In this document: in pieces, positions 9,001-12,000 of the stretch | How the letters are laid out: the number at the start of each line of letters is the position of its first letter | Numbering within the stretch: position 1 is the first letter of the stretch | Assembly (NCBI RefSeq): GCF_003334385.1 | Contig: NZ_QOWN01000030.1 | DNA length: 57,197 nucleotides | Direction: 5' to 3' (one strand) | Source of the DNA: Escherichia coli | Lineage (GTDB): Bacteria; Pseudomonadota; Gammaproteobacteria; Enterobacterales; Enterobacteriaceae | Program-made: the position numbers

Positions 9001-12000
9001 AAAAAAAAAGAATAAACATGATAAACGATCTGAAGAGTATATTGTTAAAACCTTCAGAAGAAGTTGATGTTTTTATCAAAATTTTTGAAAGTTGGGTAAC
9101 AAAATTACCATCAATATCAGGTCCTGTAAATCTCCATATACCTACCAGTTTCAAAGATAAGTCTCTTGAAGTAGAGTCATATTTTGTCGACAAATCAATA
9201 TGGAATGTCCATATTACATTTCATGATGATAAGCGTTTTGTGTTTTTTACCGATCAATTTATTGCTGAATTTAGTCCGCAGGAATTTGTGGATAATTGTG
9301 AGCAATATTTAATTAATAATCATTGTTTCTCCCCTGACAAGGTTAACGAAATCTGCGAACAAGCCAGACATTATTTAGTTGAAAAAATGTTTGAAACACA
9401 TTCTTTGGATATGAATAATTCTGTTTTGGCAAGCCCTGAGGACTTATAGCTCCCTGGCTCAAGTTTAATGATTTGAATATAATCTAATTGTAATATTTTA
9501 ATCATCTCATGATTTTTTAATGCCTGTGGTATTTTTTTACGCAAAAATTTTATTTTTAATTATACTTCATTATTATTTCATCAATGTATTCTTTGGATTT
9601 TGCTTATAATAATAATGGAAGGGATGATTATAAATGAATGCGTTAAAGCATTTACACTCAGGATGAATATATGGGAAAAATTAAAATTGTAGTTTCAGAT
9701 CAGCAGCCGTTTATGATTGATGGGATAATTGGATTTCTCGGACATTATCCTGATTTATATGAGGTTGTTGGGGGCTATAAAGATCTGAAGAAAGCTATAG
9801 CGGAGTGTAACAAATCTACAGCCTAAATATTTATTTTAGGAGAATTTGCAGGTGGAATGATGGGGGCCGAACTCGTAAAATGGGTTAAATCGCATAAGAT
9901 AGATGCTCATATTATTACATTTGTAGCAAAGATGCCGTATATTGATTCAATAAAATTGCTTGAAGCAGGTGCGAAAGGATGCGTATGGAAAACCAGTCAC
10001 CCGGCGAAACTAAATCGTGCTATTGATTCGATTAGTAATGGTTACACTTATTTTGATAGTGTACATATGGATTGTGAAAAAATATCTTCCAGGTATTCCT
10101 CTGATAATCAACTTACAAATCGTGAGTCAGAAATATTACAACTCATAGCTGATGGTAAAACAAACAAAGAAATCGCTAATTTCTTGCAGTTAAGCAGGAA
10201 AACAGTCGAAACTCATAGACTCAATATCATGAAGAAATTAGATGTTCACAGTGGTATCGAGTTGATCAAAACAGCTTTACGTATGGGTGTTTGCACTATA
10301 TAAAAAAAAGAGGCTTTAGGCTCATTTTGCTGAAGCCTTACGATTGTCTAGTTCATTAAGCCTGGTATATACAATATATATTTTGGGGCATATTGCTGTC
10401 TCTTTTTTTGGTTATCCATTGCAAAACCCGCATTATAAGTCCCCAGGCATTGCCACGTTACTCCACAACGTGAAAAATGGTTATATAAAATCTCGGTTCC
10501 TATTTTAATGTTCAGACAAGGGTTATCTAACAAATCTCGTTCATCTTTTATTATTCCACGTTTTTTTAACAGGGGAATATGCATCTGGTTTATCTGCATT
10601 AACCAATAATCTAAACTCTTTATATTGTTATTCTTATCTCTGTTCTTGCCTATGCTATCCTTTTTTAGATTGCTTTCAACAAGAGCGATAGCTTTAATTA
10701 AATTTGGTTCGATTCTGAACATTGTTCCTGCTTCATTAGAGCAAGAGTTGCTGGCGAAAGACATTTTTGTAATAAATATACAAAACGTGAAGATGGTTAA
10801 GAATTTAACTTTTGGTGAGCGCATATTTTTTCATGTGTGAGGATTGAATGAAAGGAACGAGATACTATTATAAAAGTATCTCGTTATGATTTATTTGGTC
10901 AATCGTCTACCACTCAATTTTATAGTAAGGTGAGATAGGATTATCTTCTGAATACATATCATTTTGAAAAGGCGCCATCCATGTTGAAACTATAAATGCT
11001 TGTATTTGATCTGTATCAGTAGCACTGGTGTTGATGTGTTTATCTAATGATACGACTTCATCACCCGTTGCATTCGCTATATTTGAACTTTGAGATAAAT
11101 TATTGATACCGATTGGATTAGTCATAAAGCTCCCTTTTTTAATTGTCCAGGCCAATGGTCTTTACATCATACTTTTAACTCTAGAGCATTTTAAATATCT
11201 TGCAATAAGGTGAATATCTTAGATATTTTTATCTCTGTTGTTTAAATAACAAGTTGCATACATCTAAATAATAAAATTGCGTCAATAAAAATTTATCGCA
11301 TACAAATTCTCGTCAACTGCTTTAATTTCAAAATGTTGTCAATTATAACTCGATGGCTTTCACTCTCAGTTTCTTTATAGTAGAGTTTAATGTTGTTTTT
11401 GAGCGGGTTAGGCACATACATATCTACACATTCTTTTATCACAACTGCTTTTCGTCTTCTGGGTTCGAGTTGTAGTGATTTGTCTATACAAATCCTTGCC
11501 TCTTCAATTTTTTCATTATGAAAGTGGACTAGTGCCCTATAGTAGTAGAGAGAGGCTATATCAGTTGAGTGTATCTTAGCCTGTTCAAATAAGATATGAG
11601 ATACTTTTGCTTGTCCAGACAGACCAGTTATCAGTCCCATAATAGCTAAAATTTTTCCATCGACAGTGGTTATGTCTGATACATAATCTAAAAGCTCTAA
11701 TGCTTTTTGAGCAGCAAGTTCAAGTTCACTTTTTCCATGAAGTGCCAAAGACATATGGCATTCCGCTAGAAGGCAATAACATTCTGTTTTTAGCGTCTGT
11801 ATATCACTTTTATTTTGTAATCTATCAAATATAGTCATGGCCCTGTAAATGCTTTCAGGGGTGAAGTCGTAAAGTTCTTTCTTTCCGGCTAACATTTCAT
11901 CTGATAAATAATGATTCTTATATCCTTGGTCCTGCTTAGCTAATCTTACAGATCGTTCTGGTTTATGTACCGTTTGAAGGATATTATCTATAATAAATTG

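Follow-up and report, generated by a model that had tools for sequence, protein, structure and literature searches.

A premature stop codon in ygeK/etrB, a regulator gene of the cryptic ETT2 island of Escherichia coli

Introduction

In Escherichia coli, the island of ETT2 (type III secretion system 2) encodes YgeK, also named EtrB. Reviews describe the intact protein as a NarL-family regulator that is homologous to SsrB, monocistronic, autoregulated and activated by QseA, and report that EtrB activates the enterocyte effacement locus (LEE) through ler and represses etrA and eivF (PMC10877973; PMC11068852). Deletion of ygeK in avian pathogenic E. coli (APEC) leads to less flagella, motility and biofilm (PMC11068852; PMC8614350). 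In the case of K-12, Tu et al. noted that YgeK is taken to be a pseudogene, its protein being 63 N-terminal residues shorter than those of APEC AE81 and O157:H7 (PMC8614350), and YgeK also figures as an annotated pseudogene in a survey of K-12 transcription factors that are still uncharacterised (PMC9308461). Here we have analysed the ygeK/etrB copy carried by a 57,197-nt stretch of E. coli DNA (contig NZ_QOWN01000030.1 of assembly GCF_003334385.1), called the window throughout. This copy is very probably a loss-of-function nonsense allele of a LuxR-type regulator of the cryptic ETT2, produced by the ordinary decay of the island.

Among the closest described relatives of the window gene are its orthologues in the same ETT2 place, EtrB (ECs3712; z4176 in PMC10877973) of enterohaemorrhagic E. 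coli (EHEC) O157:H7 and YgeK of APEC AE81. Both alleles carry CAA at codon 52 and encode a full 210-aa regulator, whereas the window allele is unable to make the 210-aa protein. In K-12, on the other hand, ygeK (b2856) shows no difference from the window along the 633 nt of the frame, the TAA at codon 52 included, and has the same flanks, a pbl/ygeJ-like transglycosylase gene and ygeH. More distantly, SsrB of Salmonella pathogenicity island 2, NarL and FixJ share with intact YgeK the architecture of a receiver plus a GerE/LuxR helix-turn-helix (HTH), but YgeK differs from them in having Gly in place of the phospho-acceptor Asp and Ser/Ala in place of the first acidic residue. YgeK aligned end to end with the structures of DesR, VraR, RcsB and NarL. 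The best NCBIfam match of the intact protein was PRK15369 ('two component system response regulator'), whose 137.5 bits lie far below the 242-bit cut-off of the SsrB equivalog (NF011896); the SsrB label for EtrB comes from reviews calling it an SsrB homologue (PMC10877973).

Results

An in-frame TAA interrupts ygeK

On the + strand of the window, an ATG at 9671 starts an open reading frame (ORF) of 51 codons that is closed by an in-frame TAA at 9824-9826, corresponding to codon 52. After this stop, a second ORF begins at 9857 in the same frame (coordinate mod 3 = 2) and extends to the TAA at 10301-10303, which gives 148 aa, and the full frame of 210 codons is unbroken apart from codon 52. A first-pass annotation of the window had placed the N-terminus and the remainder of ygeK in one frame with only the TAA at 9824-9826 between them, and the ORF coordinates bear this out. 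It had also taken a GTG at 9857 as the downstream start. The codon at 9857-9859 is instead ATG, the next codon (9860) is another ATG, and the sole GTG nearby (9852-9854) is out of frame. The gene comprises the following features.

9671..10303, + strand: ygeK/etrB pseudogene frame, 633 nt, encoding a NarL/LuxR-type atypical response regulator with one internal stop; identical to K-12 ygeK.
9671..9826, + strand: N-terminal 51-codon fragment (β1-α1-β2-α2 of the receiver, secondary structure taken from an AlphaFold2 model), ending at the premature TAA.
9824..9826, + strand: premature TAA at codon 52, which reads CAA (Gln) in intact alleles; a single C-to-T at 9824.
9857..10303, + strand: residual in-frame ORF of 148 aa (ATG 9857) or 147 aa (ATG 9860), covering receiver α3-α5, the linker and the GerE/LuxR HTH.
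10109..10273, + strand: GerE/LuxR-type HTH, residues 147-201 of the 210-aa frame (Pfam PF00196, E = 8.2e-21).

We compared the frame with the O157:H7 gene (WP_000516280.1, 210 aa). Fifteen of 633 nt differed (97.6% identity), and only two of these differences alter the protein: T50A and codon 52, where CAA (Gln) is replaced by TAA. Since codon 52 is one base away from that of the O157:H7 gene, the lesion is, as read from this alignment, a single C-to-T nonsense mutation that changes Gln52 into a stop. Aligning the 51 N-terminal codons with an intact homologue, as the first-pass annotation had suggested, matched them to 50 of 51 residues of O157 EtrB (the exception being T50A), in the receiver region. 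Translation from the native ATG must end after these 51 residues, before strand β3 of the receiver.

The aligned annotations of K-12, O157:H7 and strain SCU-104, the latter agreeing with the first 25 kb of the window at 99.9% identity, place the locus in the ETT2 type III secretion island, between orgA/orgB-like genes and an iagB-like lytic transglycosylase gene followed by ygeH. Hence the window copy has the ETT2 position of the family and near-identity to its members, and lacks the full 210-aa product owing to the TAA at codon 52; judged by its sequence, it is a pseudogene allele of the ygeK/etrB family and not a functional member. The NCBI annotation pipeline PGAP attaches an 'internal stop' note to the ygeK allele in K-12, SCU-104, ACN001, O104:H4, CRE1493, A28 and JNE23-001, and names the product in K-12 and SCU-104 'LuxR C-terminal-related transcriptional regulator, internal stop'.

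The downstream ORF would encode half of the receiver

Pfam recognised Response_reg (PF00072) at residues 6-118 of the intact protein (E = 3.3e-7) and GerE (PF00196) at residues 147-201. Codon 52 falls inside the former, in agreement with the first-pass placement of the stop within the receiver domain of a LuxR-type regulator. In the AlphaFold2 model (mean pLDDT 82.8) the receiver adopts a (βα)5 fold composed of β1 (4-9), α1 (13-23), β2 (30-36), α2 (39-48), β3 (53-56), α3 (66-73), β4 (80-85), α4 (93-99), β5 (101-106) and α5 (111-122), followed by a disordered linker (132-146) and the HTH helices (150-204). The stop at codon 52 immediately precedes β3.

A product starting at Met62 or Met63 would retain α3-β4-α4-β5-α5, the linker and the HTH, that is, about half of the fold without three of the five sheet strands. 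In line with this, the short product aligned to positions 63-209 of the 211-position best response-regulator profile of NCBIfam. It would not be 'receiver-less', as had been proposed, and would keep a half-receiver running from α3 to α5. Judging from the model, this half-receiver, devoid of β1-β3, would not fold alone and is expected to misfold, so that the short product would not be a clean DNA-binding domain.

The YgeK receiver lacks the phospho-acceptor residue

Gly57 of YgeK aligned with the phospho-acceptor Asp of DesR and of three typical regulators (P0043, P0046 and P0047). The comparison was extended to 14 YgeK-like homologues, which came from Escherichia species, Yersinia enterocolitica and metagenome contigs and had 48-63% identity. 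At the phospho-acceptor site (codons 56-59, window 9836-9847) the motif was LGEF in 12 of them, LGDF in one and LTEF in one. The acidic pair after β1 is Ser9-Asp10 in YgeK, the first position being Ser, Ala or Thr across the subfamily, and Lys107, the conserved Lys after β5, is invariant in the YgeK-like homologues. No histidine kinase gene was found among the genes annotated in window 1-25000, and no mention of Gly57 or of a pseudo-receiver in YgeK/EtrB was found in the literature searched. These alignments suggest that the YgeK/EtrB family has a pseudo-receiver and that phosphorylation probably does not switch even the full-length protein, because the phospho-acceptor Asp is replaced by Gly across the family.

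VpsT and CsgD are phosphorylation-independent LuxR-type regulators in which a degenerate receiver without a phospho-acceptor site is joined to a GerE HTH. The likeness of YgeK to them is a lead; by sequence, only the HTH of VpsT (3kln) was matched.

Restart downstream of the stop is an unlikely source of a functional regulator

The first-pass annotation had proposed that the downstream ORF encodes a protein that could act constitutively. Stated in terms of the corrected starts, ribosomes would restart at ATG 9857 or 9860 and make a shorter functional regulator, whose free GerE/LuxR domain binds DNA without N-terminal control. We consider this unlikely, but several observations speak in its favour. 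The two ATG codons lie 31-34 nt past the stop, and restart at such a distance is mechanistically plausible in bacterial re-initiation. Just before them we found two Shine-Dalgarno-like sequences.

9838..9842, + strand: AGGAG, Shine-Dalgarno-like, 14 nt before ATG 9857; -7.3 kcal/mol with the 16S rRNA tail; spacing above optimum.
9850..9856, + strand: AGGTGGA, likewise Shine-Dalgarno-like but weak, 3 nt before ATG 9860; -5.9 kcal/mol; spacing below optimum.

The AGGAG duplex ranks in the top 4% of + strand ATGs in the window, and gene callers predict the downstream ORF (P0003, 147 aa). Isolated C-terminal domains of SsrB, NarL, RcsB and EsrB have been solved as separate chains, and the C-terminal domains SsrB-C and FixJ-C reportedly retain activity when the receiver is absent.

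Other observations argue against a functional restart product, in addition to the expected misfolding of its half-receiver. Both Shine-Dalgarno-like sequences are codons of the conserved LGEF/AGG motif and are present in intact alleles too. If the intact YgeK receiver has no phospho-switch, and so probably no inhibitory switch, partial loss of the receiver need not free an inhibited DNA-binding domain, which weakens the analogy with FixJ-C and SsrB-C. No function for the truncated K-12 form of YgeK was reported in the literature searched.

A promoter/terminator scan gave 5 promoter-like sites versus 5.5 in shuffled sequence, with no convincing internal promoter for the short ORF.

TAA alleles are under relaxed constraint

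Among variants private to TAA alleles, 9-10 were non-synonymous and 4 synonymous, as opposed to 6 and 24, respectively, among variants of intact alleles (Fisher p = 0.002-0.004); young private variants are always enriched in non-synonymous changes, so that even significant contrasts of this kind overstate relaxation. Upstream of the stop, the private variants were 6 to 0, all of them non-synonymous or nonsense, compared with 1 to 5 in intact alleles (p = 0.015). In the downstream ORF the figures were 3-4 to 4 and 5 to 19 (p = 0.18-0.33), and these McDonald-Kreitman-style downstream counts are too few to decide. Results show that the TAA allele as a whole is under relaxed constraint.

The upstream counts also bear on the possibility that ribosomes pass the TAA, with the help of a suppressor tRNA or through context-dependent readthrough, and make a low level of full-length YgeK. 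A frame otherwise intact over 210 codons would suit such readthrough, but the 6 to 0 ratio upstream of the stop is what relaxed selection on the N-terminus predicts. PGAP treats the gene as a pseudogene, and no recoding signal was seen, although none was searched for. Both release factors recognise TAA, moreover, and of the stops in E. coli it is the least leaky. We regard readthrough as hardly credible.

Substitutions in the DNA-binding domain point in the same direction as the overall counts. T178K (C-to-A at gene nt 533, window 10203) changes a residue that is invariant across the family alignment and lies at the start of the HTH recognition helix. It was found on the TAA alleles sampled, and a 61-mer carrying it occurs in 160 complete genomes of E. 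coli, strains of O104:H21 and O128:H27 among them; at 10203 the window keeps the ancestral C. C208F and T164A were also found on TAA alleles. All three count against a functional restart product. In some TAA alleles from metagenomes there is additional damage, namely S9*, a +1 G following the ATG, or a deletion that fuses orgA to ygeK nt 22.

An excess of lesions upstream of the stop on metagenome contigs (4-5 versus 0-1 downstream) was considered as a sign of a protected downstream ORF and was not used. A single G within a run of G is all that changed in two of these events, three small insertions fall on one contig of 1.7x coverage (L026), and changes in the downstream G5 run were invisible to the search pattern.

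Several results weigh against the interpretation of the TAA allele as a plain loss of function. The duplexes at the two restart codons (-7.3 and -5.9 kcal/mol) at least match that of the native start (-4.1 kcal/mol), and the ygeK mRNA of K-12 has been detected, and found to be regulated, in microarray compilations (PMC9308461). The downstream counts give no clear fit either to neutrality (p = 0.05-0.09) or to the constraint of an intact gene (p = 0.06-0.16). In complete genomes the frame is otherwise intact: the downstream ORF was unbroken in all those inspected, with no reliable disruption in the genomes sampled, and in the six matches of changed span that were fetched from an evenly spaced sample of matching complete genomes, all length changes were intergenic. 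A low level of truncated protein is thus possible, because of the Shine-Dalgarno-like restart sites, the reported K-12 mRNA and the unbroken downstream ORF.

The TAA allele equals or exceeds the intact one in frequency and probably arose once

The 851 bases around the gene matched 3512 of 5426 complete E. coli genomes, in every case on the chromosome. To count alleles, we used an exact 47-mer over codon 52, placed to avoid neighbouring polymorphisms including nt 196 (Ala/Ser66). Of the 3485 complete genomes with a match, 1928 had the exact TAA 47-mer and 1186 the exact CAA one; the other 371 had a further difference within the 47-mer. When nt 196 was included in a 61-mer, the TAA class was divided into 793 genomes with the K-12 haplotype (T154/G196), a count inflated by the many laboratory K-12 derivatives that this class will contain, and ∼1135 with T154/T196, the version of ACN001 and O104:H4. 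Metagenome contigs, scanned independently, gave 31 TAA and 13 CAA alleles out of 44. In E. coli with the gene, the TAA allele is thus no rarer than the intact one.

All reliable TAA alleles lie on one K-12-like backbone, with at most five differences from the window. The simplest of them (L038) differs solely at nt 154 from an intact C154/T196 allele, and such an intact allele, one step off, exists (L023, L046, L054 and L056). This shared backbone favours a single origin, and the sequences indicate that the TAA probably arose once on the K-12-like background. At nt 154 (T/C, window 9824; stop/Gln52) and nt 196 (G/T, window 9866; Ala/Ser66), only 42 bp apart, all four combinations occur, which would imply one homoplasy or a very short recombination tract; a single origin requires one or the other at nt 196.

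A TAA on an O157-like ygeK backbone was seen once, in a metagenome contig of ∼3x coverage (L019; ERZ779880 NODE-1011), and could be a second origin. Its 61-mer haplotype, G148/T154/G196, was present in none of the 3485 complete genomes, and in view of this and of the coverage we rejected it as evidence of recurrent origin; L019 is probably an assembly chimera, or else a rarity.

The high frequency of the TAA allele could be explained by positive selection, if loss of EtrB helps commensal lineages, for example by silencing costly ETT2, flagellar and adhesin programmes. The frequency itself, at least equal to that of the intact allele among gene carriers, would agree with this explanation, as would the control of virulence, motility and biofilm genes by intact EtrB/YgeK. 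However, there was no sign of recurrent origin, with one backbone and an L019 haplotype absent from complete genomes, and frequency cannot separate selection from drift, hitch-hiking and sampling bias, K-12 derivatives inflating the counts. We hold positive selection to be very improbable. Frequency has a similar standing with regard to a functional restart product: that the TAA allele is very frequent speaks for it, but such frequency, coupled with little diversity, agrees with a young allele that is neutral or hitch-hikes.

Upstream region and neighbouring ETT2 genes

The AT-rich intergenic region upstream of ygeK is listed as an H-NS-bound 'promoter island' in K-12 (PMC3661553). A predicted operator site next to ygeK is also listed in the literature.

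9642..9657, + strand: GTTAAAGCATTTACAC, predicted GalR operator, 14 nt upstream of the ygeK ATG; listed in PMC5110547 as a bioinformatic prediction only.

In E. coli LD27-1 (L053), which has the same TAA allele as the window, the promoter region of ygeK holds an IS1A insertion, 33 nt upstream of the ATG. Also, rare predicted fusions place EprK-like or YgeH sequence in frame with C-terminal YgeK (P0002, P0004 and P0037, one contig each); they may be island deletions or rearrangements, or assembly artefacts.

The neighbours of ygeK on either side carry lesions of their own and are likewise pseudogenes in the window. The orgB-like gene directly upstream (8742-9449, + strand) has an in-frame TAA at codon 29, where O157:H7 has GAA (Glu). 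The O157:H7 orgB-like gene is in turn split into two ORFs further along, so that the two lineages bear independent lesions. Downstream, the iagB-like lytic transglycosylase gene (pbl/ygeJ; 10322-10824, - strand) is frameshifted near its 3′ end relative to the intact O157:H7 protein of 167 aa, and PGAP marks it as 'frameshifted' in most of the K-12-like genomes examined. In SCU-104, the YscQ-like and EscU-like genes are frameshifted and genes on the eivJ side are truncated. Compared with K-12, the island in the window is less deleted, as it keeps orgA in full length along with eprH-K and its ygeH ORF is unbroken over 458 codons (ygeH is also annotated as intact in the near-identical SCU-104), and it is without the IS2 present in K-12. 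On the evidence of these sequences, the ygeK stop is one of many lesions in a decaying ETT2 island.

Discussion

The course of events that we propose begins with the change of Gln52 to a stop on a K-12-like backbone, which probably happened once. By inheritance or by spread, the allele would then have reached a large share of the species. In its carriers the full-length regulator is presumably not made. Ribosomes may restart at ATG 9857 or 9860, near which the Shine-Dalgarno-like sequences would be fortuitous, but any product of such restart would consist of an unfoldable half-receiver fused to an HTH.

As a discovery the lesion has small weight, for the Q52* allele is already known, being present in the RefSeq annotation and in the literature as a K-12 pseudogene. 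Its consequences concern how results are carried from one strain to another. Findings obtained with the intact EtrB/YgeK of EHEC and APEC are not transferable to K-12-like strains, and lists of 'uncharacterised K-12 transcription factors' that contain YgeK include a truncated gene.

In the improbable event that restart yields an active HTH, K-12-type strains would hold a transcription factor, unrecognised and unregulated, that stems from a decayed virulence regulator, and this would concern the carriers of Q52*, which make up half or more of the E. coli genomes sampled that bear ETT2, K-12 among them. If the short ORF turned out to be translated and to act, it would illustrate, on a modest scale, how a nonsense mutation can reshape a regulator. 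For the YgeK/EtrB subfamily, whose sequences are without the phospho-acceptor Asp, the comparison suggests that the intact protein would be best studied as a phosphorylation-independent regulator.

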